64,000 bases of DNA from Eledone cirrhosa (taxonomy: Eukaryota): contig OZ024744.1 in the NCBI GenBank assembly GCA_964016885.1, positions 8,928,001-8,992,000 on the forward strand, given 5' to 3'. The position numbers were made by a program, and so were the translations under genes. Position 1 is the stretch's first letter, and every line of letters begins with the position of its first letter. Of the stretch, positions 1-57,101 are shown in pieces. The notes beneath the pieces are model-generated. The model was not told the DNA's origin. It ran no database searches and worked only from the letters and a program-made list of their open reading frames with translations.

Positions 1-3000
1 TATTATTTTTCTGCATCCTCCTGCATTGAACCACCTAGATACTATGACATAACCTGTGTATATGCTGACATTAGCGTACATCTGTGCGCATATGTTAGTA
101 GATATACTAAATTCTCTATATTTATATCCAAATCACTTTTTCGAGCAAACCTGCCAAAACCACTACTAAATTTTTGGTGTGTTAGTAGGCTTCTGTCATC
201 TTACCATCCCACTCCTACCGACTAGCCTCAGTGTCACGTGATTGATTCTTTAGAATCTACCATTTGACCAGTGACAGCGAGATTTTCAGTGCATGGAATC
301 CAGTCCCCGCTAGCTGTTCCATTTACCGAATTATTATTATTTTTATATGAGTCCCCAGTGTCCGCGCATTGCCTGGAGACTTAGCTGAGAATAGACCTCC
401 CTGATGATGCAATGAATTCTCAACAGTTTATTACGTAACTGTCTTTATCCCATTGCAGAAACTAATTAGTTGGAGTGAAAATTTTAGTAAGTTAATTTTA
501 AAAAAAATTTTTTTAATTTTCATATTTTACATCTTTTATATTATTGTTCTGCATCCTCCTGCATTGAACCACCTAGGTACTATGACATAACCTGTGTATT
601 TGCTGACATTAGCGTACATCTGTGCGCATATGTTAGTAGATATACTAAATTCTCTATATTTATCTCCAAATCACTTTGTCGAGTAAACCTGCCAAAACCA
701 CTACTAAATTTTTGGTGTGTTAGTAGGCTTCTGTCATCTTACCATCCCACTCCTACCGACTAGCCTCAGTGTCACGTGATTGATTTTTTAGAATCTACCA
801 TTTGACCAGTGACAGCGAGATTTTCAGTGCATGGAATCCAGTCCCGGCTAGCTGTTCCATTTACCGAATTATTATTATTTTTATATATGAGTCCCCAGTG
901 TCCGCGCATTGCCTGGAGACTTAGCTGAGAATAGACCTCCCTGATGACTCAATGAATTCTCAACAGTTTATTACGTAACTGTCTTTATCCCATTGCAGAA
1001 ACTAATAAGTTGGAGTGAAAATTTTAGTAAGTTAATTTTTAAAAAATTTTTTTAAATTTTCTTATTTTACGTCTTTTATATTATTGTTCTGCATCCTCCT
1101 GCATTGAACCACCTAGATACTATGACATAACCTGTGTATTTGCTGACACTAGCGTACATCTGTGCGCATATGTTAGTAGATATACTAAATTCTCTATATT
1201 TATCTGCAAATCACATTGTCGAGCAAACCTGCCAAAACCACTACTAAATTTTTGGTGTGTTAGTAGGCTTCTGTCATCTTACCATCCCACTCCTACCGAC
1301 TAGCCTCAGTGTCACGTGATTGATTCTTTAGAATCTACCATTTGACCAGTGACGGCGAGATTTTCAGTGCATGGAATCCAGTCCCCGCTAGCTGTTCCAT
1401 TTACCGAATTATTATTATTTTTATATGAGTCCCCAGTGTCCGCGCATTGCCTGGAGACTTAGCTGAGAATAGACCTCCCTGATGACGCAATGAATTCTCA
1501 ACAGTTTATTACGTAACTGTCTTTATCCCATTGCAGAAACTAATTAGTTGGAGTGAAAATTTTAGTAAGTAAGTTAATTATTTAAAAATTTTTAAAATTT
1601 TCTTATTTTACGTCTTTTATATTATTGTTCTGCATCCTCCTGCATTGAACCACCTAGATACTATGACATAACCTGTGTATTTGCTGACATTAGCGTACAT
1701 CTGTGCGCATATGTTTGTAGATATACTAAATTCTCTATTTTTAGCTCCAAATCACTTTGTCGAGCAAACCTGCCAAAACCACTACTAAATTTTTGGTGTG
1801 ATAGTAGGCTTCTGTCATCTTACCATCCCACTCCTACCGACTAGCCTCAGTGTCACGTGATTGATTTTTTAGAATCTACCATTTGACCAGTGACAGCGAG
1901 ATTTTCAGTGCATGGAATCCAGTCCCCGCTAGCTGTTCCATTTACCAAATTATTATTATTTTTATATGTGTCCCCAGTGTCCGCGCATTGCCTGGAGACT
2001 TAGCTGAGAATAGACCTCCCTGATGACGCAATTAATTCTCAACAGTTTATTACGTAACTGTCTTTATCCCATTGCAGAAACTAATTAGTTGGAGTGAAAA
2101 TTTTAGTAAGTAAGTTAATTTTTTTAAAAATTTTTTTAATTTTCTTATTTACGTCTTTTATATTATTGTTCTGCATCCTCCTGCATTGAACCACCTAGAT
2201 ACTATGACATGGCCTGTGTATTTGCTGACATTAGCGTGCATCTGTGCGCATATGTTAGTAGATATACTAAATTCTCTATAATCAGTTTGTCGAGCAAACC
2301 TCCAAAACCACTACTAAATTTTTGGTGTGTTAGTAGTCTTCTGTCATCTTACCATCCCACTCCTACCGACTAGCCTCAGTGTCACGTGATTGATTTTTTA
2401 GAATCTACCATTTGAACAGTGACAGCGAGATTTTCAGTGCATGGAATCCAGTCCGCGCTAGCTGTTCCATTTACCGAATTATTATTATTTTTATATGAGT
2501 CCCCAGTGTCCGCGCATTGCCTGGAGACTTAGCTGAGAATAGACCTCCCTGATGATGCAATGAATTCTCAACAGTTTATTACGTAACTGTCTTTATCCCA
2601 TTGCAGAAACTAATTAGTTGGAGTGAAAATTTTAGTAAGTAAGTTAATTTTTAAAAAAATTTTTTTAATTTTCTTATTTTACGTCTTTTATATTATTGTT
2701 CTGCATCCTCCTGCATTGAACCACCTAGGTACTATGACATAACCTGTGTATTTGCTGACATTAGCGTACATCTGTGCGCATATGTTAGTAGATATACTAA
2801 ATTCTCTATATTTAACTCCAAATCAGTTTGTCGAGCAAACCTCCAAAACCACTACTAAATTTTTGGTGTGTTAGTAGGCTTCTGTCATCTTACCATCCCA
2901 CTCCTACCGACTAGCCTCAGTGTCACCTGATTGATTTTTTAGAATCTACCATTTGACCAGTGACAGCGAGATTTTCAGTGCATGGAATCCAGTCCCCGCT

Positions 3001-6000
3001 AGCTGTTCCATTTACCGAATTATTATTATTTTTATATGAGTCCCCAGTGTCCGCGCATTGCCTGGAGACTTAGCTGAGAATAGACCTCCCTGATGACGCA
3101 ATGAATTCTCAACAGTTTATTACGAAACTGTCTTTATCCCATTGCAGAAACTAATTAGTTGGAGTGAAAACTTTAGTAAGTAAGTTAATTTTTTAAACAT
3201 TTTAAAAATTTTCTTATTTTACGTCTTTTATATTATTGTTCTGCATCCTCCTGCATTGAACCACCTAGATACTATGACATAACCTGTGTATTTGCTGACA
3301 TTAGCGTACATCTGTGCGCATATGTTAGTATATATACTAAATTCTCTATATTTATCTCCAAATCAGTTTGTCGAGCAAACCTGCCAAAACCACTACTAAA
3401 TTGTTGGTGTGTTAGTAGGCTTCTGTCATCTTACCATCCCACTCCTACCGACTAGCCTCAGTGTCACGTGATTGATTCTTTAGAATCTACCATTTGACCA
3501 GTGACAGCGAGATTTTCAGTGCATGGAATCCAGTCCCCGCTAGCTGTTCCATTTACCGAATTATTATTATTTTTATATGAGTCCCCAGTGTCCGCGCATT
3601 GCCTGGAGACTTAGCTGAGAATAGACCTCCCTGATGACGCAATGAATTCTCAACAGTTTATTACGTAACTGTCTTTATCCCATTGCAGAAACTAATTAGT
3701 TGGAGTGAACATTTTAGTAAGTAAGTTAATTTTTTAGAAGTTTTTTTTAAATTTCTTATTTTACGTCTTTTGTATTATTTTTCTGCATCCTCCTGCATTG
3801 AACCACCTAGATACTATGACATAACCTGTGTATATGCTGACATTAGCGTACATCTGTGCGCATATGTTAGTAGATATACTAAATTCTCTATATTTATATC
3901 CAAATCACTTTTTCGAGCAAACCTGCCAAAACCACTACTAAATTTTTGGTGTGTTAGTAGGCTTCTGTCATCTTACCATCCCACTCCTACCGACTAGCCT
4001 CAGTGTCACGTGATTGATTCTTTAGAATCTACCATTTGACCAGTGACAGCGAGATTTTCAGTGCATGGAATCCAGTCCCCGCTAGCTGTTCCATTTACCG
4101 AATTATTATTATTTTTATATGAGTCCCCAGTGTCCGCGCATTGCCTGGAGACTTAGCTGAGAATAGACCTCCCTGATGATGCAATGAATTCTCAACAGTT
4201 TATTACGTAACTGTCTTTATCCCATTGCAGAAACTAATTAGTTGGAGTGAAAATTTTAGTAAGTTAATTTTAAAAAAAATTTTTTTAATTTTCATATTTT
4301 ACATCTTTTATATTATTGTTCTGCATCCTCCTGCATTGAACCACCTAGGTACTATGACATAACCTGTGTATTTGCTGACATTAGCGTACATCTGTGCGCA
4401 TATGTTAGTAGATATACTAAATTCTCTATATTTATCTCCAAATCACTTTGTCGAGTAAACCTGCCAAAACCACTACTAAATTTTTGGTGTGTTAGTAGGC
4501 TTCTGTCATCTTACCATCCCACTCCTACCGACTAGCCTCAGTGTCACGTGATTGATTTTTTAGAATCTACCATTTGACCAGTGACAGCGAGATTTTCAGT
4601 GCATCGAATCCAGTCCCGGCTAGCTGTTCCATTTACCGAATTATTATTATTTTTATATATGAGTCCCCAGTGTCCGCGCATTGCCTGGAGACTTAGCTGA
4701 GAATAGACCTCCCTGATGACTCAATGAATTCTCAACAGTTTATTACGTAACTGTCTTTATCCCATTGCAGAAACTAATAAGTTGGAGTGAAAATTTTAGT
4801 AAGTTAATTTTTAAAAAATTTTTTTAAATTTTCTTATTTTACGTCTTTTATATTATTGTTCTGCATCCTCCTGCATTGAACCACCTAGATACTATGACAT
4901 AACCTGTGTATTTGCTGACACTAGCGTACATCTGTGCGCATATGTTAGTAGATATACTAAATTCTCTATATTTATCTGCAAATCACATTGTCGAGCAAAC
5001 CTGCCAAAACCACTACTAAATTTTTGGTGTGTTAGTAGGCTTCTGTCATCTTACCATCCCACTCCTACCGACTAGCCTCAGTGTCACGTGATTGATTCTT
5101 TAGAATCTACCATTTGACCAGTGACGGCGAGATTTTCAGTGCATGGAATCCAGTCCCCGCTAGCTGTTCCATTTACCGAATTATTATTATTTTTATATGA
5201 GTCCCCAGTGTCCGCGCATTGCCTGGAGACTTAGCTGAGAATAGACCTCCCTGATGACGCAATGAATTCTCAACAGTTTATTACGTAACTGTCTTTATCC
5301 CATTGCAGAAACTAATTAGTTGGAGTGAAAATTTTAGTAAGTAAGTTAATTATTTAAAAATTTTTAAAATTTTCTTATTTTACGTCTTTTATATTATTGT
5401 TCTGCATCCTCCTGCATTGAACCACCTAGATACTATGACATAACCTGTGTATTTGCTGACATTAGCGTACATCTGTGCGCATATGTTAGTAGATATACTA
5501 AATTCTCTATTTTTAGCTCCAAATCACTTTGTCGAGCAAACCTGCCAAAACCACTACTAAATTTTTGGTGTGATAGTAGGCTTCTGTCATCTTACCATCC
5601 CACTCCTACCGACTAGCCTCAGTGTCACGTGATTGATTTTTTAGAATCTACCATTTGACCAGTGACAGCGAGATTTTCAGTGCATGGAATCCAGTCCCCG
5701 CTAGCTGTTCCATTTACCAAATTATTATTATTTTTATATGTGTCCCCAGTGTCCGCGCATTGCCTGGAGACTTAGCTGAGAATAGACCTCCCTGATGACG
5801 CAATTAATTCTCAACAGTTTATTACGTAACTGTCTTTATCCCATTGCAGAAACTAATTAGTTGGAGTGAAAATTTTAGTAAGTAAGTTAATTTTTTTAAA
5901 AATTTTTTTAATTTTCTTATTTACGTCTTTTATATTATTGTTCTGCATCCTCCTGCATTGAACCACCTAGATACTATGACATGACCTGTGTATTTGCTGA

Positions 6001-9000
6001 CATTAGCGTGCATCTGTGCGCATATGTTAGTAGATATACTAAATTCTCTATAATCAGTTTGTCGAGCAAACCTCCAAAACCACTACTAAATTTTTGGTGT
6101 GTTAGTAGTCTTCTGTCATCTTACCATCCCACTCCTACCGACTAGCCTCAGTGTCACGTGATTGATTTTTTAGAATCTACCATTTGAACAGTGACAGCGA
6201 GATTTTCAGTGCATGGAATCCAGTCCGCGCTAGCTGTTCCATTTACCGAATTATTATTATTTTTATATGAGTCCCCAGTGTCCGCGCATTGCCTGGAGAC
6301 TTAGCTGAGAATAGACCTCCCTGATGATGCAATGAATTCTCAACAGTTTATTACGTAACTGTCTTTATCCCATTGCAGAAACTAATTAGTTGGAGTGAAA
6401 ATTTTAGTAAGTAAGTTAATTTTTAAAAAAATTTTTTTAATTTTCTTATTTTACGTCTTTTATATTATTGTTCTGCATCCTCCTGCATTGAACCACCTAG
6501 GTACTATGACATAACCTGTGTATTTGCTGACATTAGCGTACATCTGTGCGCATATGTTAGTAGATATACTAAATTCTCTATATTTAACTCCAAATCAGTT
6601 TGTCGAGCAAACCTCCAAAACCACTACTAAATTTTTGGTGTGTTAGTAGGCTTCTGTCATCTTACCATCCCACTCCTACCGACTAGCCTCAGTGTCACCT
6701 GATTGATTTTTTAGAATCTACCATTTGACCAGTGACAGCGAGATTTTCAGTGCATGGAATCCAGTCCCCGCTAGCTGTTCCATTTACCGAATTATTATTA
6801 TTTTTATATGAGTCCCCAGTGTCCGCGCATTGCCTGGAGACTTAGCTGAGAATAGACCTCCCTGATGACGCAATGAATTCTCAACAGTTTATTACGAAAC
6901 TGTCTTTATCCCATTGCAGAAACTAATTAGTTGGAGTGAAAACTTTAGTAAGTAAGTTAATTTTTTAAACATTTTAAAAATTTTCTTATTTTACGTCTTT
7001 TATATTATTGTTCTGCATCCTCCTGCATTGAACCACCGAGATACTATGACATAACCTGTGTATTTGCTGACATTAGCGTACATCTGTGCGCATATGTTAG
7101 TATATATACTAAATTCTCTATATTTATCTCCAAATCAGTTTGTCGAGCAAACCTGCCAAAACCACTACTAAATTGTTGGTGTGTTAGTAGGCTTCTGTCA
7201 TCTTACCATCCCACTCCTACCGACTAGCCTCAGTGTCACGTGATTGATTCTTTAGAATCTACCATTTGACCAGTGTCAGCGAGATTTTCAGTGCATGGAA
7301 TCCAGTCCCCGCTAGCTGTTCCATTTACCGAATTATTATTATTTTTATATGAGTCCCCAGTGTCCGCGCATTGCCTGGAGACTTAGCTGAGAATAGACCT
7401 CCCTGATGACGCAATGAATTCTCAACAGTTTATTACGTAACTGTCTTTATCCCATTGCAGAAACTAATTAGTTGGAGTGAAAATTTTAGTAAGTAAGTTA
7501 ATTTTTAAAAAATTTTTAAAATTTTCTTATTTTACGTCTTTTATATTATTGTTCTGCATCCTCCTGCATTGAACCACCTAGATACTATGACATAACCTGT
7601 GTATTTGCTGACATTAGCGTACATCTGTGCGCATATGTTAGTAGATATACTAAATTCTCTATTTTTAACTCCAAATCACTTTGTCGAGCAAACCTGCCAA
7701 AACCACTACTAAATTTTTGGTGTGATAGTAGGCTTCTGTCATCTTACCATCCCACTCCTACCGACTAGCCTCAGTGTCACGTGATTGATTTTTTAGAATC
7801 TACCATTTGACCAGTGACAGCGAGATTTTCAGTGCATGGAATCCAGTCCCCGCTAGCTGTTCCATTTACCGAATTATTATTATTTTTATATGTGTCCCCA
7901 GTGTCCGCGCATTGCCTGGAGACTTAGCTGAGAATAGACCTCCCTGATGACGCAATGAATTCTCAACAGTTTATTACGTAACTGTCTTTATCCCATTGCA
8001 GAAACTAATTAGTTGGAGTGAAAACTTTAGTAAGTAAGTTAATATTTTTAAAAATTTTTTTAATTTTCTTATTTTACGTCTTTTATATTATTGTTCTGCA
8101 TCCTCCTGCATTGAACCACCTAGATACTATGACATAACCTGTGTATTTGCTGACATTAGCGTGCATCTGTGCGCATATGTTAGTAGAGATACTAAATTCT
8201 CTATATTTATCTCCAAATCAGTTTGTCGAGCAAACCTGCCAAAACCACTACTAAATTTTTGGTGTGTTAGTAGGCTTCTGTCATCTTACCATCCCACTCC
8301 TACCGACTAGCCTCAGTGTCACGTGATTGATTTTTTAGAATCTACCATTTGACCAGTGACAGCGAGATTTTCAGTGCATGGAATCCAGTCCCTGCTAGCT
8401 GTTCCATTTACCGAATTATTATTATTTTTATATGAGTCCCCAGTGTCCGCGCATTGCCTGGAGACTTAGCTGAGAATAGACCTACCTGATGACGCAATGA
8501 ATTCTCAATAGTTTATTACGTAACTGTCTTTATCCCATTGCAGAAACTAATTAGTTGGAGTGAAAATTTTAGTAAGTAGGTTAATTTTTTAAAAAATTTT
8601 TAAAATTTTCTTATTTTACGTCTTTTATATTATTGTTCTGCATCCTCCTGCATTGAACCACCTAGGTACTATGACATAACCTGTGTATTTGCTGACATTA
8701 GCGTACATCTGTGCGCATATGTTAGTAGATATACTAAATTCTCTATATTTAACTCCAAATCACTTTGTCGAGCAAACCTGCCAAAACCACTACTACATTT
8801 TTGGTGTGTTAGTAGGCTTCTGTCATCTTACCATCCCACTCCTACCGACTAGCCTCAGTGTCACGTGATTGATTCTTTAGAATCTACCATTTGACCAGTG
8901 ACAGCGAGATTTTCAGTGCATGGAATCCAGTCCCCGCTAGCTGTTCCATTTACCGAATTATTATTATTTTTATATGAGTCCCCAGTGTCCGCGCATTGCC

Positions 9001-12000
9001 TGGAGACTTAGCTGAGAATAGACCTCCCTGATGACGCAATGAATTCTCAACAGTTTATTACGTAACTGTCTTTATCCCATTGCAGAGACTAATTAGTTGG
9101 AGTGAAAATTTTAGTAAGTAAGTTAATTTTTTAAACATTTTTAAAATTTTCTTATTTTACGTCTTTTATATTATTGTTCTGCATCCTCCTGCATTGAACC
9201 ACCTAGGTACTATGACATAACCTGTGTATTTGCTGACATCAGCGTACATCTGTGCGCATATGTTAGTAGATATACTAAATTCTCTATATTTATCTCCAAA
9301 TCACTTTGTCGAGTAAACCTGCCAAAACCACTACTAAATTTCTGGTGTGTTAGTAGGCTTCTGTCATCTTACCATCCCACTCCTACCGACTAGCCTCAGT
9401 GTCACGTGATTGATTTTTTAGAATCTAACATTTGACCAGTGACAGCTAGATTTTCAGTGCATGGAATCCAGTCCCCGCTAGCTGCTCCATTTACCGAATT
9501 ATTATTATTTTTATATATGAGTCCCCAGTGTCCGCGCATTGCCTGGAGACTTAGCTGAGAATAGACCTCCCTGATGACGCAGTGAATTTTCAACAGTTTA
9601 TTACGTAACTGTCTTTATCCCATTGCAGAAACTAATTAGTTGGAGTGAAAATTTTAGTAAGTAAGTTAATTTTTTAAAAACTTTTTTAAATTTTCTTATT
9701 TTACGTCTTATATATTATTGTTCTGCATCCTCCTGCATTGAACCACCTAGATACTATGACATAACCTGTGTATTTGCTGACATTAGCGTACATATGTGCG
9801 CATATGTTAGTAGATATACTAAATTCTCTATATTTAACTCCAAATCACTATGTCGAGCAAACCTGCCAAAACCACTACTAAATTTTTGGTGTGATAGTAG
9901 GCTTCTGTCATCTTACCATCCCACTCCTACCGACTAGCCTCAGTGTCACGTGATTGATTTTTTAGAATCTACCATTTGACCAGTGACAGCGAGATTTTCA
10001 GTGCATGGAATCCAGTCCCCGCTAGCTGTTCCATTTACCGAATTATTATTATTTTTATATGAGTCCCCAGTGTCCGCGCATTGCCTGGAGACTAAGCTGA
10101 GAATAGACCTCCCTGATGAAGCAATGAATTTTCAACAGTTTATTACGTAACTGTCTTTATCCCATTGCAGAATCTAATTAGTTGGAGTGAAAATTTTAGT
10201 AAGTTAATTTTTAAAAAAAATTTTAAAATTTTCTTATTTTACGTCTTTTATATTATTGTTCTGCCTCCTCCTGCATTGAACCACCTAGGTACTATGACAT
10301 AACCTGTGTATTTGCTGACATCAGCGTTCATCTGTGCGCATATGTTAGTAGATATACTAAATTCTCTATATTTATCTCCAAATCACTTTGTCGAGTAAAC
10401 CTGCCAAAACCACTACTAAATTTCTGGTGTGTTAGTAGGCTTCTGTCATCTTACCATCCCACTCCTATCGACTAGCCTCAGTGTCACGTGATTGATTTTT
10501 TAGAATCTACCATTTGACCAGTGACAGCGAGATTTTCAGTGCATGGAATCCAGTCCCCGCTAGCTGCTCCATTTACCGAATTATTATTATTTTTATATAT
10601 GAGTCCCCAGTGTCCGCGCATTGCCTGGTGACTTAGCTGAGAATAGACCTCCCTGATGACGCAATGAATTCTCAACAGTTTATTACGTAACTGTCTTTGT
10701 CCCATTGCAGAAACTAATAAGTTGGAGTGAAAATTTTAGTAAGTAAGTTAATTTTTTAAAAAATTTTTTAAATTTTCTTATTTTACGTCTTTTATATTAT
10801 TGTTCTGCATCCTCATGCATTGAACCACCTAGATACTATGACATAATCTGTGTATTTGCTGACATTAGCGTACATCTGTGCGCATATGTTAGTAGATATA
10901 CTAAATTCTCTATATTTAACTCCAAATCACTTTGTCGAGCAAACCTGCCAAAACCACTACTAAATTTTTGGTGTGATAGTAGGCTTCTGTCATCTTACCA
11001 TCCCACTCCTACCGACTAGCCTCAGTGTCACGTGATTGATTTTTTAGAATCTACCTTTTGACCAGTGACAGCGAGATTTTCAGTGCATGGAATCCAGTCC
11101 CCGCTAGCTGTTCCATTTACCGAATTATTATTATTTTTATATGTGTCCCCAGTGTCCGCGCATTGCCTGGAGACTTAGCTGAGAATAGACCTCCCTGATG
11201 ACGCAGTGAATTCTCAACAGTTTATTACGTAACTGTCTTTATCCCATTGCAGAAACTAATTAGTTGGAGTGAAAATTTTAGTAAGTAAGTTTATTTTTAA
11301 AAAAATTTTTTAAATTTTCTTATTTTACGTCTTTTATATTATTGTTCTGCATCCTCCTGCATTGAACCACCTAGATACTATGACATAACCTGTGTATTTG
11401 CTGACATTAGCGTACATCTGTGCGCATATGTTAGTAGATATACTAAATTCTCTATATTTAACTCCAAATCACTTTATCGAGCAAACCTGCCAAAACCACT
11501 ACTAAATTTTTGGTGTGTTAGTAGGCTTCTGTCATCTTACCATCCCACTCCTACCGACTAGCCTCAGTGTCACGTGATTGATTCTTTAGAATCTACCATT
11601 TGACCAGTGACAGCGAGATTTTCAGTGCATGGAATCCAGTCCCCGCTAGCTGTTCCATTTACCGAATTATTATTATTTTTATATGAGTCCCCAGTGTCCG
11701 CGCATTGCCTGGAGACTTAGCTGAGAATAGACCTCCCTGATGACGCAATGAATTCTCAACAGTTTATTACGTAACTGTCTTTATCCCATTGCAGAAACTA
11801 ATAAGTTGGAGTGAAAATTTTAGTAAGTTAGTTAATTTTTTTAAAATTTTTTAAAATTTTCTTATTTTACGTCTTTTATATTATTGTTCTGCATCCTCCT
11901 GCATTGAACCACCTAGGTACTATGACATAACCTGTGTATTTGCTGACATTAGCGTACATCTGTGCGCATATGTTAGTAGATATACTAAATTCTCTATATT

Positions 12001-42000: not shown

Positions 42001-45000
42001 ATTATTATTATTTTTATATGAGTCCCCAGTGTCCGCGCATTGCCTGGAGACTTAGCTGAGAATAGACCTACCTGATGACGCAATGAATTCTCAATAGTTT
42101 ATTACGTAACTGTCATTATCCCATTGCAGAATCTAATTAGTTGGAGTGAAAATTTTAGTAAGTAAGTTAATTTTTTAAAAATTTTTTTAAATTTTCTTAT
42201 TTTACGTCTTTTATATTATTGTTCTGCATCCTCCTGCATTGAACCACCTAGGTACTATGACATAACCTGTGTATTTGCTGACATTAGCGTACATCTGTGC
42301 GCATATGTTAGTAGATATACTAAATTCTCTATATTTAACTCCAAATCACTTTGTCGAGCAAACCTGCCAAAACCACTACTAAATTTTTGGTGTGTTAGTA
42401 GGCTTCTGTCATCTTACCATCCCACTCCTACCGACTAGCCTCAGTGTCACGTGATTGATTCTTTAGAATCTACCATTTGACCAGTAACAGCGAGATTTTC
42501 AGTGCATGGAATCCAGTTCCCGCTAGCTGTTTCATTTACCGAATTATTATTATTTTTATATGAGTCCCCAGTGTCCGCGCATTGCCTGGAGACTTAGCTG
42601 AGAATAGACCTCCCTGATGAAGCAATGAATTCTCACCAGTTTATTACGTAACTGTCTTTATCTCATTGCAGAAACTAATTAGTTGGAGTGAAGATTTTAG
42701 TAAGTAAGATAATTTTTAAAAAAAAATTTTAAATTTTCTTATTTTACGTCTTTTATATTATTGTTCTGCCTCCTCCTGTATTGAACCACCTAGGTACTAT
42801 GACATAACCTGTGTATTTGCTGACATTAGCGTACATCTGTGCGCATATGTTAGTAGATATACTAAATTCTCTATATTTATCTCCAAATCACTTTGTCGAG
42901 CAAACCTGCCAAAACCACTACTAAATTGTTGGTGTGTTAGTAGGCTTCTGTCATCTTACCATCCCACTCCTAGCGACTAGCCTCAGTGTCACGTGATTGA
43001 TTCTTTAGAATCTACCATTTGACCAGTGACAGCGAGATTTTCAGTGCATGGAATCCAGTCCCCGCTAGCTGTTCCATTTACCGAATTATTATTATTTTTA
43101 TATGAGTCCCCAGTGTCCGCGCATTGCCTGGAGACTTAGCTGAGAATAGACCTCCCTGATGACGCAATGAATTCTCAACAGTTTATTACGTAACTGTCTT
43201 TATCCCATTGCAGAAACTAATTAGTTGGAGTGAAAATTTTAGTAAGTAAGTTAATTTAAAAAAAATTTTTTTTAATTTTCTTATTTTACGTCTTTTATAT
43301 TATTGTTCTTCATCCTCCTGCATTGAACCACCTAGATACTATGACATAACCTGTGTATTTGCTGACATTAGCGTACATCTGTGCGCATATGTTAGTAGAT
43401 ATACTAAATTCTCTATATTTATCTCCAAATCACTTTGTCGAGCAAACCTGCCAAAACCACTACTAAATTTTTGGTTTGTTAGTAGGCTTCTGTCATCTTA
43501 CCATCCCACTCCTACCGACTAGCCTCAGTGTCACGTGATTGATTTTTTAGAATCTACCATTTGACCAGTGACAGCGAGATTTTCAGTTCATGGAATCCAG
43601 TCCCCGCTAGCTGTTCCATTTACCGAATTATTATTATTTTTATATGAGTCCCCAGTGTCCGCGCATTGCCTGGAGACTTAGCTGAGAATAGACCTCCCTG
43701 ATGACGCAATGAATTCTCAACAGTTTATTACGTAACTGTCTTTATCCCATTGCAGAAACTAATTAGTTGGAGTGAAAATTTTAGTAAGTTAATTTTTTTA
43801 AAAATTTTTTTAATTTTCTTATTTTACGTCTTTTATATTATTGTTCTGCATCCTCCTGCATTGAACCACCTAGGTACTATGACATAACCTGTGTATTTGC
43901 TGACATTAGCGTACATCTGTGCGCATATTTTAGTAGATATACTAAATTCTCTATTTTTAACTCCAAATCACTTTGTCGAGCAAACCTGCCAAAACCACTA
44001 CTAAATTTTTGGTGTGTTAGTAGGCTTCTGTCATCTTACCATCCCACTCCTACCGACTAGCCTCAGTGTCACGTGATTGATTCTTTAGAATCTACCATTT
44101 GACCAGTGACAGCGAGATTTTCAGTGCATGGAATCCAGTCCCCGCTAGCTGTTCCATTTACCGAATTATTATTATTTTTATATGAGTCCCCAGTGTCCGC
44201 GCATTGCCTGGAGACTTAGCTGAGAATAGACCTCCCTGATGACGCAATGAATTCTCAACAGTTTATTACGTAACTGTCTTTATCCCATTGCAGAAACTAA
44301 TTAGTTGGAGTGAAAATTTTAGTAAGTAAGTTAATTTTTTAAACATTTTTAAAATTTTCTTATTTTACGTCTTTTATATTATTGTTCTGCATCCTCCTGC
44401 ATTGAACCACCTAGATACTATGACATAACCTGTGTATTTGCTGACATTAGCGTACATCTGTGCGCATATGTTAGTAGATATACTAAATTCTCTATATTTA
44501 ACTCCAAATCACTTTGTCGAGCAAACCTGCCAAAACCACTACTAACTTTTTGGTGTGATAGTAGGCTTCTGTCATCTTACCATCCCACTCCTACCGACTA
44601 GCCTCAGTGTCACGTGATTGATTCTTTAGAATCTACCATTTGACCAGTGACAGCGAGATTTTCAGTGCATGGAATCCAGTCCCCGCTAGCTGTTCCATTT
44701 ACCGAATTATTATTATTTTTATATGAATCCCCAGTGTCCACGCATTGCCTGGAGACTTAGTTGAGAATAGACCTCCCTGATGACGCAATGAATTCTCAAC
44801 AGTTTATTACGTAACTGTCTTTATCCTATTGCAGAAACTAATTAGTTGGAGTGAAAATTTTAGTAAGTAAGTTAATTTTTTTTAAATGTTTAAAATTTTC
44901 TTATTTTACGTCTTTTGTACTATTGTTCTGCATCCTCCTGCATTGAACCACCTAGGTACTATGACATAACCTGTGTATTTGCTGACATTAGCGTACATCT

Positions 45001-48000
45001 GTGCGCATATGTTAGTAGATATACTAAATTCTCTATATTTAACTCCAAATCACTTTGTCGAGCAAACCTGCCAAAACCACTACTAAATTTTTGGTGTGTT
45101 AGTAGGCTTCTGTCATCTTACCATCCCACTCCTACCGACTAGCCTCAGTGTCACGTGATTGATTCTTTAGAATCTACCATTTGACCATTGACAGCGAGAT
45201 TTTCAGTGCATGGAATCCAGTCCCCGCTAGCTGTTCCATTTACCGAATTATTATTATTTTTATATGAGTCCCCAGTGTCCGCGCATTGCCTGGAGACTTA
45301 GCTGAGAATAGACCTCCCTGATGACGCAATGAATTCTCAACAGTTTATTACGTAACTGTCTTTATCCCATTGCAGAAACTAATAAGTTGGAGTGAAAATT
45401 TTAGTAAGTAAGTTAATTTTTTTAAAATTTTTTAAAATTTTCTTATTTTACGTCTTTTATATTATTGTTCTGCATCCTCCTGCATTGAACCACCTAGGTA
45501 CTATGACATAACCTGTGTATTTGCTGACATTAGCGTACATCTGTGCGCATATGTTAGTAGATATACTAAATTCTCTATATTTATCTCCAAATCACTTTGT
45601 CGAGTAAACCTGCCAAAACCACTACTAAATTTCTGGTGTGTTAGTAGGCTTCTGTCATCTTACCATCCCACTCCTACCGACTAGTCTCAGTGTCACGTGA
45701 TTGATTTTTTAGAATCTACCATTTGACCAGTGACAGCGAGATTTTCAGTGCATGGAATCCAGTCCCCGCTAGCTGCTCCATTTACCGAATTATTATTATT
45801 TTTATATATGAGTCCCCATTGTCCGCGCATTGCCTGGAGACTTAGCTGAGAATAGACCTCCCTGATGACGCAATGAATTCTCAACAGTTTATTACGTAAC
45901 TGTCTTTATCCCATTGCAGAAACTAATAAGTTGGAGTGAAAATTTTAGTAAGTAAGTTAATTTTTAAAAAATTTTTTTAAATTTTCTTATTTTACGTCTT
46001 TTATATTATTGTTCTGCATCCTCCTGCATTGAACCACTAGATACTATGACATAACCTGTGTATTTGCTGACATTAGCGTACATCTGTGCGCATATGTTAG
46101 TAGATATACTAAATTCTCTATATTTAACTCCAAATCATTTTGTCGAGCAAACCTGCCAAAACCACTACTAAATTTTTGGTGTGATAGTAGGCTTCTGTCA
46201 TCTTACCATCCCACTCCTACCGACTAGCCTCAGTGTCACGTGATTGATTTTTTAGAATCTACCATTTGACCAGTGACAGCGAGATTTTCAGTGCATGGAA
46301 TCCAGTCCCCGCTAGCTGTTCCATTTACCGAATTATTATTATTTGTATATGTGTCCCCAGTGTCCGCGCATTGCCTGGAGACTTAGCTGAGAATAGACCT
46401 CCCTGATGACGCAATGAATTCTCAACAGTTTATTACGTAACTGTCTTTATCCCATTGCAGAAACTAATTAGTTGGAGTGAAAATTTTAGTAAGTAAGTTA
46501 ATTTTTTAAAATTTTTTTTAAATTTTCTTATTTTACGTCTTTTATATTATTGTTCTGCATCCTCCTGCATTGAACCACCTAGATACTATGACATAACCTG
46601 TGTATTTGCTGACATTAGCGTACATCTGTGCGCATATGTTAGTAGATATATTAAATTCTCTATATTTATCTCCAAATCACTTTGTCGAGCAAACCTGCCA
46701 AAATCACTAATAAATTTTTGGTGTGTTAGTAGGCTTCTGTCATCTTACCATCCCACTCCTACCGACTAGCCTAGGTGTCACGTGATTGATTCTTTAGAAT
46801 CTACCATTTGACCAGTGACAGCGAGATTTTCAGTGCATGGAATCCAGTCCCCGCTAGCTGTTCCATTTACCGAATTATTATTATTTTTATATGAGTCCCC
46901 AGTGTCCGCGCATTGCCTGGAGACTTAGCTGAGAATAGACCTACCTGATGACGCAATGAATTCTCAATAGTTTATTACGTAACTGTCTTTATCCCATTGC
47001 AGAAACTAATTAGTTGGAGTGAAAATTTTAGTAAGTTAATTCTTAAAAAAATTTTTTTAATTTTCTTATTTTACGTCTTTTATATTATTGTTCTGCATCC
47101 TCCTGCATTGAACCACCTAGGTACTATGACATAACCTGTGTATTTGCTGACATTAGCGTACATCTGTGCGCATATGTTAGTAGATATACTAAATTCTCTA
47201 TATTTAACTCCAAATCACTTTGTCGAGCAAACCTGCCAAAACCATTACTAAATTTTTGGTGTGTTAGTAGGCTTCTGTCATCTTACCATCCCACTCCTAC
47301 CGACTAGCCTCAGTGTCACGTGATTGACTCTTTAGAATCTACCATTTGACCAGTGACAGCGAGATTTTCAGTGCATGGAATCCAGTCCCCGCTAGCTGTT
47401 TCATTTACCGAATCATTATTATTTTTATATGAGTCCCCAGTGTCCGCGCATTGCCTGGAGACTTAGCTGAGAATAGACCTCCCTGATGACGCAATGAATT
47501 CTCAACAGTTTATTACGTAACTGTCTTTATCCCATTGCAGAAACTAATAAGTTGGAGTGAAAATTTTAGTAAGTAAGTTAATTTTTTTTTAATTTTTTTA
47601 AATTTTCTTATTTTACGTCTTTTATATTATTGTTCTGCATCCTCCTGCATTGAACCACCTAGGTACTATGACATAACCTGTGTATTTGCTGACATTAGCG
47701 TACATCTGTGCGCATATGTTAGTAGATATACTAAATTCTCTATATTTATCTCCAAATCACTTTGTCGAGTAAACCTGCCAAAACCACTACTAAATTTCTG
47801 GTGTGTTAGTAGGCTTCTGTCATCTTACCATCCCACTCCTACCGACTAGTCTCAGTGTCACGTGATTGATTTTTTAGAATCTACCATTTGACCAGTGACA
47901 GCGAGATTTTCAGTGCATGGAATCCAGTCCCCGCTAGCTGCTCCATTTACCGAATTATTATTATTTTTATATTTGAGTCCCCAGTGTCCGCGCATTGCCT

Positions 48001-51000
48001 GGAGACTTAGCTGAGAATAGACCTCCCTGATGACGCAATGAATTCTCAACAGTTTATTACGTAACTGTCTTTATCCCATTGCAGAAACTAATAAGTTGGA
48101 GTGAAAATTTTAGTAAGTAAGTTAATTTTTAAAAAATTTTTTTAAATTTTCTTATTTTACGTCTTTTATATTATTGTTCTGCATCCTCCTGCATTGAACC
48201 ACCTAGATACTATGACATAACCTGTGTATTTGCTGACATTAGCGTACATCTGTGCGCATATGTTAGTAGATATACTAAATTCTCTATATTTAACTCCAAA
48301 TCATTTTGTCGAGCAAACCTGCCAAAACCACTACTAAATTTTTGGTGTGATAGTAGGCTTCTGTCATCTTACCATCCCACTCCTACCGACTAGCCTCAGT
48401 GTCACGTGATTGATTTTTTAGAATCTACCATTTGACCAGTGACAGCGAGATTTTCAGTGCATGGAATCCAGTCCCCGCTAGCTGTTCCATTTACCGAATT
48501 ATTATTATTTGTATATGTGTCCCCAGTGTCCGCGCATTGCCTGGAGACTTAGCTGAGAATAGACCTCCCTGATGACGCAATGAATTCTCAACAGTTTATT
48601 ACGTAACTGTCTTTATCCCATTGCAGAAACTAATTAGTTGGAGTGAAAATTTTAGTAAGTAAGTTAATTTTTTAAAAATTTTTTTAAATTTTCTTATTTT
48701 ACGTCTTTTATATTATTGTTCTGCATCCTCCTGCATTGAACCACCTAGATACTATGACATAACCTGTGTATTTGCTGACATTAGCGTACATCTGTGCGCA
48801 TATGTTAGTAGATATATTAAATTCTCTATATTTATCTCCAAATCACTTTGTCGAGCAAACCTGCCAAAATCACTAATAAATTTTTGGTGTGTTAGTAGGC
48901 TTCTGTCATCTTACCATCCCACTCCTACCGACTAGCCTAGGTGTCACGTGATTGATTCTTTAGAATCTACCATTTGACCAGTGACAGCGAGATTTTCAGT
49001 GCATGGAATCCAGTCCCCGCTAGCTGTTCCATTTACCGAATTATTATTATTTTTATATGAGTCCCCAGTGTCCGCGCATTGCCTGGAGACTTAGCTGAGA
49101 ATAGACCTACCTGATGACGCAATGAATTCTCAATAGTTTATTACGTAACTGTCTTTATCCCATTGCAGAAACTAATTAGTTGGAGTGAAAATTTTAGTAA
49201 GTTAATTCTTAAAAAAATTTTTTAAATTTTCTTATTTTACGTCTTTTATATTATTGTTCTGCATCCTCCTGCATTGAACCACCTAGGTACTATGACATAA
49301 CCTGTGTATTTGCTGACATTAGCGTACATCTGTGCGCATATGTTAGTAGATATACTAAATTCTCTATATTTAACTCCAAATCACTTTGTCGAGCAAACCT
49401 GCCAAAACCATTACTAAATTTTTGGTGTGTTAGTAGGCTTCTGTCATCTTACCATCCCACTCCTACCGACTAGCCTCAGTGTCACGTGATTGACTCTTTA
49501 GAATCTACCATTTGACCAGTGACAGCGAGATTTTCAGTGCATGGAATCCAGTCCCCGCTAGCTGTTTCATTTACCGAATCATTATTATTTTTATATGAGT
49601 CCCCAGTGTCCGCGCATTGCCTGGAGACTTAGCTGAGAATAGACCTCCCTGATGAAGCAATGAATTCTCAACAGTTTATTACGTAACTGTCTTTATCCCA
49701 TTGCAGAAACTAATTAGTTGGAGTGAAAATTTTAGTAAGTAAGTTAATTTTTAAAAAAAAATTTTAAATTTTCTTATTTTACGTCTTTTATATTATTGTT
49801 CTGCCTCCTCCTGCATTGAACCACCTAGGTACTATGACATAACCTGTGTATTTGCTGACATTAGCGTACATCTGTGCGCATATGTTAGTAGATATACTAA
49901 ATTCTCTATATTTATCTCCAAATCACTTTGTCGAGCAAACCTGCCAAAACCACTAATAAATTTTTGGTGTGTTAGTAGGCTTCTGTCATCTTACCATCCC
50001 ACTCCTACCGACTAGCCTCAGTGTCACGTGATTGATTCTTTAGAATCTACCATTTGACCAGTGACAGCGAGATTTTCAGTGCATGGAATCCAGTCCTCGC
50101 TAGCTGTTTCATTTACCGAATTATTATTATTTTTATATGAGTCCCCAGTGTCCGCGCATTGCCTGGAGACTTAGCTGAGAATAGACCTACCTGATGACGC
50201 AATGAATTCTCAATAGTTTATTACGTAACTGTCTTTATCCCATTGCAGAAACTAATTAGTTGGAGTGAAAATTTTAGTAAGTAAGTTAATTTTTTAAAGT
50301 TTTTTTAAAATTTTCTCATTTTACGTCTTTTATATTATTGTTCTGCATCCTCCTGCATTGAACCACCTAGGTACTATGACATAACCTGTGTATTTGCTGA
50401 CATTAGCGTACATCTGTGCGCATATGTTAGTAGATATACTAAATTCTCTATATTTATCTCCAAATCACTTTGTCGAGCAAACCTGCCAAAACCACTACTA
50501 AATTTTTGGTGTGTTAGTAGGCTTCTGTCATCTTACCATCCCACTCCTACCGACTAGCCTCAGTGTCACGTGATTGATTCTTTAGAATCTACCATTTGAC
50601 CAGTGACAGCGAGATTTTCAGTGCATGGAATCCAGTCCCCGCTAGCTGTTCCATTTACCGAATTATTATTATTTTTATATATGAGTCCCCAGTGTCCGCG
50701 CATTGCCTGGAGACTTAGCTGAGAATAGACCTCCCTGATGACGCAATGAATTCTCAACAGTTTATTACGTAACTGTCTTTATCCCATTGCAGAAAGTAAT
50801 AAGTTGGAGTGAAAATTTTAGTAAGTAAGTTAATTTTTTAAAAATTTTTTTTAATTTTCTTAATTTACGTCTTTTATATTATTGTTCTGCATCCTCCTGC
50901 ATTGAACCACCTAGATACTATGACATAACCTTGTATTTGCTGACATTAGCGTACATCTGTGCGCATATCTTAGTAGATATACTAAATTCTCTATATTTAA

Positions 51001-54000
51001 CTCCAAATCACTTTGTCGAGCAAACCTGCCAAAACCACTACTAAATTTTTGGTGTGATAGTAGGCTTCTGTCATCTTACCATCCCAATCCTACCGACTAG
51101 CCTCAGTGTCACGTGATTGATTTTTTAGAATCTACCATTTGACCAGTGACAGCGAGATTTTCAGTGCATGGAATCCAGTCCCCGCTAGCTGTTCCATTTA
51201 CCGAATTATTATTATTTTTATATGAGTCCCCAGTGTCCGCGCATTGCCTGGAGACTTAGCTGAGAATAGACCTCCCTGATGACGCAATGAATTCTCAACA
51301 GTTTATTACGTAAGTGTCTTTATCCCATTGCAGAAACTAATTAGTTGGAGTGAAAATGTTAGTAAGTAAGTTAATTTTTTAAAAAAATTTTTAAATTTTC
51401 TTATTTTACGTCTTTTATATTATTGTTCTGCATCCTCCTGCATTGAACCACCTAGGTACTATGACATAACCTGTGTATTTGCTGACATTAGCGTACATCT
51501 GTGCGCATATGTTAGTAGATATACTAAATTCTCTATATTTATCTCCAAATCACTTTGTCGAGCAAACCTGCCAAAACCACTACTAAATTTTTGGTGTGTT
51601 AGTAGGCTTCTGTCATCTTACCATCCCACTCCTACCGACTAGCCACAGTGTCACGTGATTGATTTTTTAGAATCTACCATTTGACCAGTGACAGCGAGAT
51701 TTTCAGTTCATGGAATCCAGTCCCCGCTAGCTGTTCCATTTACCGAATTATTATTATTTTTATATGAGTCCCCAGTGTCCGCGCATTGCCTGGAGACTTA
51801 GCTGAGAATAGACCTCCCTGATGACGCAATGAATTCTCAACAGTTTATTACGTAACTGTCTTTATCCCATTGCAGAAACTAATTAGTTGGAGTGAAAATT
51901 TTAGTAAGTAAGTTAATTTTTTTAAACTTTTTTTAAATTTTCTTATTTTACGTCTTTTATATTATTGTTCTGCATCCTCCTGCATTGAACCACCTAGGTA
52001 CTATGACATAACCTGTGTATTTGCTGACTTTAGCGTACATCTGTGCGCATATGTTAGTAGATATACTAAATTCTCTATATTTATCTCCAAATCACTTTGT
52101 CGAGCAAACCTGCCAAAACCACTACTAAATTTTTGGTGTGTTAGTAGGCTTCTGTCATCTTACCATCCCACTCCTACCGACTAGCCTCAGTGTCACGTGA
52201 TTGATTCTTTAGAATCTACCATTTGACCAGTGACAGCGAGATTTTCAGTGCATGGAATCCAGTCCCCGCTAGCTGTTCCAGTTACCGAATTATTATTATT
52301 TTTATATGAGTCCCCAGTGTCCGCGCATTGCCTGGAGACTTAGCTGAGAATAGACCTCCATGATGACGCAATGAATTCTCAACAGTTTATTACGTAACTG
52401 TCTTTATCCCATTGCAGAAACTAATTAGTTGGAGTGAAAATTTTAGTAAGTAAGTTAATTTTTTAAAAAATTTTTAAAATGTTCTTATTTTACGTCTTTT
52501 ATATTATTGTTCTGCATCCTCCTGCATTGAACCACCTAGATACTATGACATAACCTGTGTATTTGCTGACATTAGCGTACATCTGTGCGCATATGTTAGT
52601 AGATATACTAAATTCTCTATATTTATCTCCAAATCACTTTGTCGAGCAAACCTGCCAAAACCACTACTAAATTTTTGGTGTGTTAGTAGGCTTCTGTCAT
52701 CTTACCATCCCACTCCTACCGACTAGCCTCAGTGTCACGTGATTGATTCTTTAGAATCTACCATTTGACCAGTGACAGTGAGATTTTCAGTGCATGGAAT
52801 CCAGTCCTCGCTAGCTGTTCCATTTACCGAATTGTTATTATTTTTATATGAGTCCCCAGTGTCCGCGCATTGCCTGGAGACTTAGCTGAGAATAGACCTC
52901 CCCGATGACGCAATGAATTCTCAACAGTTTATTACGTAACTGTCTTTATCCCATTGCAGAAACTAATTAGTTGGAGTGAAAACTTTAGTAAGTAAGTTAA
53001 TTTTTTTAAGTTTTTTTTAAATTTTCTTATTTTACGTCTTTTAACCACCTAGGTACTATGACATAACCTGTGTATTTGCTGACATTAGCGTACATCTGTG
53101 CGCATATGTTAGTAGATATACTAAATTCTCTATATTTATCTCCAAATCACTTTGTCGAGCAAACCTGCCAAAACCACTACGAAATTTTTGGTGTGTTAGT
53201 AGGCTTCTGTCATCTTACCATCCCACTCCTACCGACTAGCCTCAGTGTCACGTGATTGATTCTTTAGAATCTACCATTTGACCAGTGACAGCGAGATTTT
53301 CAGTGCATGGAATCCAGTCCCCGCTAGCTGTTCCATTTACCGAATTATTATTATTTTTATATGAGTCCCCAGTGTCCGCGCATTGCCTGGAGACTTAGCT
53401 GAGTATAGACCTCCCCGATGACGCAATGAATTCTCAACAGTTTATTACGTAACTGTCTTTATCCCATTGCAGAAACTAATTAGTTGGAGTGAAAACTTTA
53501 GTAAGTAAGTTAATTTTTTAAAGTTTTTTTTAAATTTTCTTGTTTTACGTCTTTTAACCACCTAGGTACTATGACATAACCTGTGTATTTGCTGACATTA
53601 GCGTACATCTGTGCGCATATGTTAGTAGATATACTAAATTCTCTATATTTATCTCCAAATCACTTTGTCCAGCAAACCTGCCAAAACCACTACTAAATTT
53701 TTGGTGTGTTAGTAGGCTTCTGTCATCTTACCATCCCACTCCTACCGACTAGCCTCAGTGTTACGTGATTGATTCTTTAGAATCTACCATTTGACCAGTG
53801 ACAGCGAGATTTTCAGTGCATGGAATCCAGTCCCCGCTAGCTGTTCCATTTACCGAATTATTATTATTTTTATATGAGTCCCCAGTGTCCGCGCATTGCC
53901 TGGAGACTTAGCTGAGAATAGACCTCCCTGATGACGCAATGAATTCTCAACAGTTTATTACGTAACTGTCTTTATCCCATTGCAGAAACTAATTAGTTGG

Positions 54001-54179
54001 AGTGAACATTTTAGTAAGTAAGTTAATTTTTTTTAATTTTTTTAAAATTTTCTTATTTTACGTCTTTTATATTATTGTTCTGCATCCTCCTGCATTGAAC
54101 CACCTAGGTACTATGACATAACCTGTGTATTTGCTGACATTAGCGTACATCTGTGCGCATATGTTAGTAGATATACTAA

Positions 54180-54184
<5 letters not shown>
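1..54184 (+). repeat. Tandem satellite array, ~541-bp monomer, about 100 copies (runs off the left edge of the window)
   Basis: The same unit (TATTATTGTTCTGCATCCTCC...TTTTACGTCTTTTA) recurs every ~540-542 bp with only scattered substitutions and small indels. The last copy is truncated at ...ACTAAATTCT, running into (TA)n. Confidence 0.99.
397..475 (+). ncRNA. Type I hammerhead ribozyme-like motif (first copy shown; one per monomer)
   Basis: Stem I CTCC 397-400/GGAG 472-475; core CTGATGA 401-407; stem II TGCAATG 408-414/CATTGCA 451-457 enclosing hairpin ACAGTT 423-428/AACTGT 437-442; GAAA 458-461; palindromic stem III ACTAATTAGT 461-470; GUU triplet 469-471. Order and pairing match the hammerhead consensus. 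Folded by eye only. Confidence 0.7.

Positions 54185-54221
<37 letters not shown>
54184..54221. repeat. (TA)n microsatellite at the array terminus
   Basis: Pure TA run directly abutting the truncated last monomer. Confidence 0.97.
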
Positions 54222-54222
<1 letters not shown>

Positions 54223-55089
54223 TTGGGGAGGGTCATATTTGTGTAATATTGCCAGAATTAATAACGGAACACACTCACTGTTTGGTTGGTTTTCGCTTTT
54301 CGCTTCTGTGTCTTTTATATCGGCAATCTAATTTATTCGGTCCTCGATGTTGCCATTGACTGACCAACGGTCAAATATAATACAGATACAATATAGACAC
54401 AAACACATATATATAGTTTATCAAAGTTCTTTCGTTGCACATCTGCAACATCGTCAGCGGTGCTATTGTTTCCTCCCGTTGCATTGTATTTTCTACATAT
54501 ATATAGGCAAACATACTTAGACTCACATACATATATCCCACACATATTTTTCCTGTTTTATTATATACATATTCGCACACATCTTTCACTATATAAATTC
54601 ATATTCATGCACACACATGCATATATCATACATATATCATACATTTAACAATATGCATATTCGAAATTTTAACATCTTTTCATTTCATTTCACTTAAATC
54701 TGCTCCCATACAAACAAGTCTATCCGATCGATTTTTAAGTCCCTTATAGGGTTAGTCCCTTGATAATGGGATCTTTAAATTTGCTAAGGTAAGATTCTTT
54801 TGTTATTTTGTCAATTTAACATTCTTCATACGCATTGTATTGGTCTTCAAATTTAAATTTGTATTTCATATATATACATAGATACATGATGGTTTCCCCC
54901 TCGTTATCAAGTATGGCCTTCGCACGATATACCATTATTAATAATTATTAATTAATTATATCGTGCAATGCCTGTGCGTGAAGATATTTTTTAAAGTGAG
55001 GAAAGACTGTGCACTGAACCAATCCCACTCTCTGAGCGACAGTAGCTATAACCCGAAAAGAAGAAAAGATCAACATCATCAGTAACTAC

Positions 55090-56270: not shown

Positions 56271-56663
56271 GGAGAGGTGTGGTAGTAATAATCGGCAAAG
56301 AAGGATGAGAAAGACGAAAGAGGGGTGGGCGCAGCAGAAGGAGACGACGACGAGGAGGTGGTAGAAATAGTATCCCTATTAATAGTAGTAAAGGGAACTG
56401 TCCGTGGGATTGTCCTAAGTTGTAGAGTGACATTAAAGTTGACCGAGGAAGTAATTATTTCTAAATATATCTATCTTAGGATTTCTGTCGGTAATACTGG
56501 CACTCTTAGTTTGTATATTGGTGTAAAAAATTGACCTGCAGAATGATTGTATCTGAAGATGTCTATCTTCCTTGGTATTTCTGAATGAAATACTATCTTT
56601 CTTAATTTGTCCATTGGTGTTAATGTTGGTTGTTCGTGGCAGTTTCGTCTGTTGTAGATGCAT

Positions 56664-57101
56664 TTAAAAGGGGTTCGTATTTAGTGATAATGTGTGATTC
56701 TTTGTTAATGTGCTGCAAATCGTTGTCTTTAAATTTGTAGAGGGGAAAATTCTGAAATTGAGTTGTTCATTAGAGGCGCAGGTAGCAATGTGTTTACTCA
56801 GTGCTATCTTTCTGTATTTCCGTATTTTAATTTGGGATCTATGAACGACTATACGTTGACGGAGACAGTTTTTAGTCTGTCCTATGTAGTGTTTTCGAGA
56901 GCCTGAACAAGTCAACACATAGATAAGGTTTTCTAATGCGCATGTGAAATTGTATTTAACTGTAAAGTGTTGTCCTTGTTTGAAGTGGAACTCCGATCCC
57001 TCTATTATCTTGATACACAGTTGAGTCTTCCGCATTTTTTTATTTTTTGGTTTTGTTGTTAAGGTCGACTGGACTTTGGCCTGTGTAAGGATGTTTTTCA
57101 T
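56664..57101 (-). pseudogene. GIY-YIG endonuclease domain of the Penelope-like element
   Basis: ORF contains FTCALENLIYVLTC...HYIGQTKNCLRQRIVVH, the IY-x-YIG-QT-R-H signature, downstream of RT motifs. Confidence 0.85.

Follow-up and report, generated by a model that had tools for sequence, protein, structure and literature searches.

What is the roughly 541-bp tandem repeat, with a hammerhead ribozyme motif in each unit, that fills most of a 64-kb stretch of the Eledone cirrhosa genome (contig OZ024744.1, positions 8,928,001 to 8,992,000; hereafter, the window)? An earlier note on this DNA had described it as a homogeneous, about 100-copy satellite of retrozyme-like character, and had taken its monomer length and array size as possible signs of an undescribed family. 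Our analysis indicates, with a probability of roughly 0.8, that the unit represents a non-coding mobile element belonging to the retrozymes without long terminal repeats (non-LTR), that its thousands of dispersed copies were likely copied by a Penelope-like element (PLE), and that the array grew from a single such insertion to 369 units, most likely through block duplication.

Counting unit anchors across the window gave 100 on the forward strand and none on the reverse, with spacings of 542 bp in 55 of 99 intervals and 541 bp in 26 (range, 513 to 544), in agreement with the copy number and orientation first claimed. These units (1..54184, +) are the right-hand 100 of a tandem array that reaches ~145 kb to the left of the window and totals 199.5 kb (G000:C28:8,782,639-8,982,184), comprising 369 direct hammerheads and one short inverted arm that forms its left start. 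The last hammerhead motif lies at 53924..54002 (+), and the right end of the array falls at window position 54184, in a (TA)19 target microsatellite (54184..54221, no strand). The absence of a conserved open reading frame (ORF), also claimed before, extends to the whole array, in which the longest stop-free frame is 100 amino acids (aa). Unit GC content is 36 to 38%, and the circular unit fold scored z = -5.1 against 40 shuffles (opposite strand, z = -6.1).

The first motif (397..475, +) and its parts stand where they had been placed. Stem I is 4 bp, formed by CTCC (397-400) and GGAG (472-475), the core consists of CTGATGA (401-407) and GAAA (458-461), and cleavage is predicted after GUU at 471 (471/472). 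Stem II spans 50 nt (408..457, +) and includes an unpaired base at 408 (C in most copies, T here), a 6-bp GCAATG/CATTGC helix, a pyrimidine-rich internal loop, an apical hairpin (ACAG/CTGT) and an extra A at 457. Stem III is a 10-nt palindrome, ACTAATTAGT (461..470, +), through which two hammerheads are predicted to pair with each other. Scanning with a loose type I descriptor found the real unit on the forward strand only and gave no match in 20,000 shuffled units. The check that had been proposed, a search with the Rfam hammerhead models, returned no hit on the unit: a scan of the window gave nothing at gathering score, and no Rfam hammerhead family appeared at E ≤ 10 on window 1-1700. The core (CUGAnGA, GAAA and NUH around three helices, with an open stem I) is kept in 338 of the 369 array copies and broken in 31 (13 of the 100 in the window), while core, stem I, stem II and palindrome are all intact in 258/369 array copies and 56/100 window copies; both members of adjacent unit pairs are fully canonical in 160 of 368 cases.

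Stems I and II and the apical hairpin are supported by covariation across subfamilies. In a set of 24 sequences from several subfamilies, from which 7 of 30 distinct dispersed motifs had been excluded as near-duplicates or damaged copies, 97.8% of cells were paired and 50 cells were changed on both sides, and none of 500 shuffles was as good in paired cells, two-sided changes or covariation score. One stem II pair occurs in all four Watson-Crick forms, and stem II is fully paired in 24 of all 30 distinct dispersed motifs. The base of stem II deserves separate mention. An unpaired C precedes G10.1 in 97/98 dispersed copies and an extra A follows C11.1 in 97/98, so that the 10.1-11.1 pair does not stand directly before G12; the C and the extra A can equally be read as a C.A mismatch closing stem II. 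The GUU triplet is present in all 98. As nearly all dispersed copies carry this C and A, the T of window copy 1 is a derived variant: this U10.1 allele, which the earlier note had included in its proposed cleavage test, is not the functional form and occurs in 21 of the 369 array copies, versus C in 325. The majority C.A step is a family-wide trait, not decay.

The motif is spread throughout the 3.0-Gb assembly, which is rich in microsatellites. Genome-wide we counted 9,507 full motifs, 13,041 occurrences of a 17-mer and 4,343 of an exact 25-mer, both from the 3' part of the motif, with zero for the reversed-pattern control in each case. The dispersed insertions examined hold one to four units each, lie within (TA)n and are 72 to 98% identical to the array unit, and all subfamilies seen consist of non-coding units of 522 to 594 bp. 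The reading of the repeat as a retrozyme-like type I hammerhead in tandem units is borne out by these copies and by the covariation; its reading as a stand-alone homogeneous satellite family is not, the array being one expanded insertion of an interspersed retroelement. After removal of the array, forward matches still exceed reverse ones by about 340 (25-mer) and 660 (17-mer), and another subfamily is likewise skewed (433 forward versus 351 reverse); the remaining forward-strand excess hints at further long arrays elsewhere. The genome also holds at least three further hammerhead-like families (L117:977, L125:4373 and L126:8644; L120:7803 and L128; L123:3064-3222), in which stem III is palindromic or short and stem II has unpaired bases at its foot.

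Insertions of the unit have two fixed end sites, ~73 nt (short) and ~195 nt (long, about 186 to 195) after the predicted cut, in (TA)n. Among 90 distinct arm ends, 43 stopped in TA at the short site, 35 did so at the long site and 12 lay elsewhere, most of these near the same two sites, and none of the 90 continued into foreign, non-unit sequence. In window coordinates, the short site, where insertions stop in (TA)n, corresponds to approximately 524..541 (+), and the long 3' end, which merges into the TA target, to 54177..54184 (+). Just 5' of the long end lies a long conserved hairpin (54126..54176, +), with 21 pairs, 3 of them with changes on both sides, in 11 sequences; the same hairpin is found at 57-107 in the first partial unit of the window. 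At 93 5' junctions, the adjoining sequence is an inverted unit arm in 55 cases, TA in 26 and something else in 12. Two-armed insertions (n = 31) combined a short with a long end in 20 cases and like with like in none, with 11 unparsed. Target-site duplications are unreadable within the (TA)n targets. A run of TC repeats before the TA is common at long ends (L207, L218, L219, L222, L229, L233), suggesting slippage at priming.

Among the traits described for PLEs are partial tandems, a 5' copy in inverted orientation and a tail on one side (PMC8557442). Judged from the structure of its insertions, the unit, with an inverted 5' arm, a one-sided tail and a microsatellite target, follows the pattern expected of PLE-mobilized sequence. 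It shares 5' truncation, partial tandems, the inverted 5' arm and the one-sided tail with the endonuclease-bearing (EN+) PLEs Neptune, Nematis, Hydra and Naiad, and (TA)n targets with Hydra and Naiad, as these are described in PMC8557442. The unit itself has no reading frame for reverse transcriptase (RT) plus GIY-YIG and is not an autonomous PLE.

A young TA-targeting PLE, which we call H1, is the best candidate driver and the likely mobilizer, its representative at L235 having an open frame of 995 codons. We scored 150 copies at 97 to 100% protein identity. H1 bears its own hammerhead, with TA ends ~155 or 215 nt after it; across 90 H1 loci, inverted arms were seen at 42 of the 78 readable junctions, and 24 of 31 two-armed copies had one short and one long end. 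By eye, H1 shows an RW motif as in Hydra and a CX4CxxC linker as in Neptune and Nematis. At a single locus, L191 (1 of the 78 readable H1 loci), an H1 arm with a short end stands head-to-head with a unit arm with a long end, joined through a 6-bp microhomology with no TA between them.

These observations can be assembled into a proposed cycle. Tandem copies would be transcribed, and two neighboring hammerheads would pair through the palindrome and cut after GUU, giving ~541-nt RNAs that would probably be circularized. The RT/GIY-YIG protein of a PLE would then nick (TA)n and prime on the two strands of the target, at the positions 73 and 195 nt past the cut, with copying crossing the cut junction for one to four rounds. 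Since all insertions end downstream of the cut and are copied back over it, the template would have been a re-ligated circle or an uncut multimer; we prefer the circle because circles have been shown for other retrozymes (PMC7229834). More tentatively, and in our estimate with odds clearly below even, a retrozyme unrelated in sequence to the element that drives it may have captured the PLE machinery by RNA shape alone, that is, by its hammerhead, its hairpin and two TA-like priming sites. The 73- and 195-nt ends would then record twin priming on circular RNA, and L191 would reflect one integration complex loading both RNAs.

Several results pull the other way. The tail of the unit is ~122 nt, longer than the 30 to 40 nt given for PLEs in PMC8557442. 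The L191 chimera could be a later deletion between neighboring insertions. We found no convincing DNA similarity between the 3' untranslated regions (UTRs) of H1 or of H2, a second TA-targeting PLE family, and the unit (best E value 0.007, in AT-rich sequence), nor any PLE with the unit as its own terminal repeat in 76 + 37 PLE loci, these 113 being few among tens of thousands. Of five covariation measures, two failed against shuffles (279/500 and 497/500), and the covariation is to be read with the caveat that the sequences are related and that stem III is invariant and preset by the search pattern. Copies within one insertion were not consistently closer to each other than to copies in other insertions, which leaves circular and linear templates unseparated. 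In the folding model, the free fold of a two-unit RNA was 5.2 kcal/mol better than the double hammerhead, and the lowest-energy fold of the isolated motif buries the core. Finally, only 1 of 9 tested frog retrozyme dimers is reported to have cleaved (10.64898/2026.07.22.740005).

The alternative that survives best also takes the unit for a retrozyme and parts from our view over the partner alone: the unit would be a terminal repeat (pLTR) that came loose from an autonomous PLE of its own, present or past in the genome, and H1 would not be the driver. We consider this possible but on balance doubtful. In Xenopus, 24 of 57 retrozyme families matched transposable elements, 21 of 22 of which were PLEs, at their termini (10.64898/2026.07.22.740005), and the motif has the features given for PLE pLTR hammerheads in PMC4209133, namely, a stem I of 4 to 5 bp (4 bp here), a stem II that is long, a base left unpaired after position 9, G10.1-C11.1, a palindromic stem III and predicted dimer action. 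It departs from that description in the extra A between 11.1 and G12, a stem II that reaches 50 nt and includes an internal loop and an apical hairpin, the 10-nt length of the palindrome and the lack of an ORF. The ~110 PLE loci screened, of more than 10,000 candidates per query, leave room for such a parent. Against this reading, 0 of 90 arm ends run on into non-unit sequence, L191 alone among the 93 5' junctions was seen to join a PLE reading frame, and all subfamilies seen, across 72 to 98% identity to the array unit, are non-coding at 522 to 594 bp.

Does the motif cut? The folding model gave -9.0 kcal/mol for the palindrome duplex versus +1.5 for the monomer hairpin, and placed the double hammerhead 7.4 kcal/mol below two monomers. 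The palindromic nature of the 10-nt stem III implies a predicted need for dimers in cutting, and the duplex gain, set against the better free fold and the buried core, leads us to predict cutting that is slow and dimer-dependent. A different view is that the motif is a degenerate or slow hammerhead, kept for another RNA task such as RT recognition or splicing, that rarely cuts, the template being an uncut multimer. GUU is a slower hammerhead substrate than GUC, the extra A lies between C11.1 and G12, an inactive fold competes with the motif, and the insertions always hold sequence on both sides of the cut site. Minimal PLE hammerheads also cut poorly in vitro (PMC4209133). A splicing role could draw on a YAG acceptor that overlaps the core, preceded by a tract (before NCAG) that is 79% pyrimidine, and on a GTAAGT found 8 to 30 nt past the cut in 92/98 copies; other blocks of the unit are, however, as conserved as GTAAGT, and the other hammerhead-like families of this genome have an unpaired step at the stem II base (T.T) without splice-like signals. 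The axolotl HHR_Amex2, with U.U at the same step, does cleave (PMC7229834). The core nucleotides, the covariation of stem I and the fixed GUU (98/98) are, moreover, cleavage requirements, and we regard a motif retained for another purpose as improbable, favoring a hammerhead that would cut slowly as a dimer.

As a separate observation, a pyrimidine tract ending in CAG (window 444-458, +) overlaps the hammerhead core in every unit, and a GTAAGT (487-492, +) follows 28 nt after that CAG. The pair could possibly define a micro-exon whose splicing would compete with ribozyme folding.

How did one insertion become 369 units? The inverted left arm of the array has a short end and window position 54184 has a long end, both in TA; with both standard insertion ends, the giant array is one ordinary insertion that was later expanded. 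Its units cluster together (with weak support, 83/84) inside a dispersed subfamily at 96.5 to 98% identity, which has 59 matches outside the array (289 minus 230). Distinct units number 276 of 368, with a mean pairwise difference of 3.0%. None of the 367 direct neighbors are identical, while 17 identical pairs occur at an offset of 4 units and 17 at an offset of 13; one 12-unit run recurs exactly 13 units further on, and some blocks of 7 to 12 units are exact repeats. Never-identical neighbors together with exactly recurring blocks point to unequal exchange or slippage, not a single rolling copy, and expansion was most likely by block duplication at the DNA level. That the long array is an assembly artifact or a one-step product of rolling-circle reverse transcription is very improbable: exact repeats of 7-to-12-unit blocks are what over-assembly can yield, but the many distinct units, their 3.0% mean difference and the lack of identical neighbors speak against it, the block pattern is not expected from one rolling copy, and both array ends are proper insertion ends, even if the exact copy number may still be off. 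Within the array, variant alleles number 0.73 per core site versus 0.68 elsewhere; with core sites about as variable as other parts of the unit, the ribozyme shows no sign of selection there and drifts neutrally, a passenger. Two 513-bp units near the right end (window 52,866-53,892) share a common deletion and a broken core, CCGATGA, and 512-bp units like this pair are also found further inside it.

Both flanks of the array (L037:4587-4624 and window 54218-54489) are 3' ends of H2 pointing into the same TA tract, indicating that TA tracts collect successive PLE-type insertions. The right-hand flank is a 3' UTR remnant (54218..54489, -), 90.8% identical over 272 bp to a PLE in L163; a hammerhead-like motif can be read by eye inside it, near 54420-54461. 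We had considered the array-flanking inverted repeat as a miniature inverted-repeat transposable element and rejected this on recognizing the H2 ends. Further out, at about window 56,650-58,080 (-), lies a decayed PLE with RT and GIY-YIG remnants. It is 58 to 67% identical to a 784-aa family that is abundant and carries an ORF of ~455 aa upstream; near the 3' end of that family, no hammerhead was detected. The decayed PLE and its 784-aa relatives were rejected as a parent of the unit, having an unrelated 3' UTR and no family hammerhead attached. A GIY-YIG sequence between two family hammerheads at C1:30.68 Mb was likewise rejected as a linked element, these being independent insertions. The nearest named relative of one PLE protein of this genome is from Octopus vulgaris (65% identity).

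Other features of the unit and window are minor. The sequence TGTCACGTG stands at window 232-240 (+), recurs in every unit and is invariant in five divergent representatives; it resembles an E-box/CLEAR site and could form part of a promoter. The window contains no tRNA, and a bacterial promoter scan of it was at chance level, with a model not applicable to an animal host. A metagenome scan gave 0 matches. Contigs from the three runs listed as containing the unit, none of them recorded as RNA and all from one sample of unknown kind, contain the 541 tandem joint, which is uninformative on expression or copy number, and showed no splice-like or ORF joint.

Retrozymes as a kind are already known, and we regard this as a new non-LTR retrozyme family. 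With tandem non-coding hammerhead units, interspersed retrotransposed copies, low GC content and a self-paired monomer, the unit can be classed among them on its sequence features. Metazoan non-LTR retrozymes are described with units of 150 to 450 bp and as 62-mers in coral, up to 180 units in axolotl and 300 in beetle (PMC7229834; 10.64898/2026.07.22.740005), and a preprint on 35 genomes gives monomers of 51 to 972 bp, arrays of up to 300 units and a PLE origin (10.64898/2026.07.22.740005). Neither the monomer length nor the size of the array is thus without precedent: the unit is longer than 150 to 450 bp, yet inside the wider range, although 369 units exceed the maximum that the preprint gives for its 35 genomes. 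Our family resembles those described in its tandem units, which are non-coding, low in GC and all equipped with a type I hammerhead, in its short dispersed tandems and rare long arrays and in coexisting PLEs. It differs in that its hammerhead is PLE-like rather than canonical and missed by Rfam, and in that no homologous parent PLE was found in the 113 PLE loci. Newt and axolotl satellite 2 (HHR_Amex1, HHR_Amex2) likewise form satellite-like arrays with a weak palindromic stem III and dimer dependence, HHR_Amex2 having a mismatch at the stem II base and cleaving better as a dimer (PMC7229834); they differ in sequence and in length (330 to 350 bp), and the canonical loop 1-loop 2 contacts were not identified in our unit. 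Plant LTR retrozymes, with a type III hammerhead in LTRs, a primer binding site and a polypurine tract, are unlike the type I topology in tandem units seen here.

In the literature searched, the family appears undescribed, as do its variant of the hammerhead, its host group and an intact record of the birth of a 369-unit array, though supplements may list the family, and full-text searches returned no octopus description of such a retrozyme. For the giant squid, the genome paper reports 235 Rfam hammerhead hits that it does not analyze, which means that cephalopod hammerheads in themselves are no novelty; as the present variant escapes Rfam, such families are probably undercounted. The mobilizer of animal retrozymes is still a proposal, based on co-occurrence and pLTR homology. 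The question becomes directly testable in this genome, which offers young copies by the thousand, ends at fixed sites, one chimera and, in H1, a candidate PLE that is itself young, and the array shows how one retroelement insertion gave rise to a satellite and kept its two original ends. If the capture of PLE machinery by RNA shape is true, this family would provide direct genomic evidence for the way in which retrozymes and PLEs integrate, together with a complete birth record of a 200-kb satellite.

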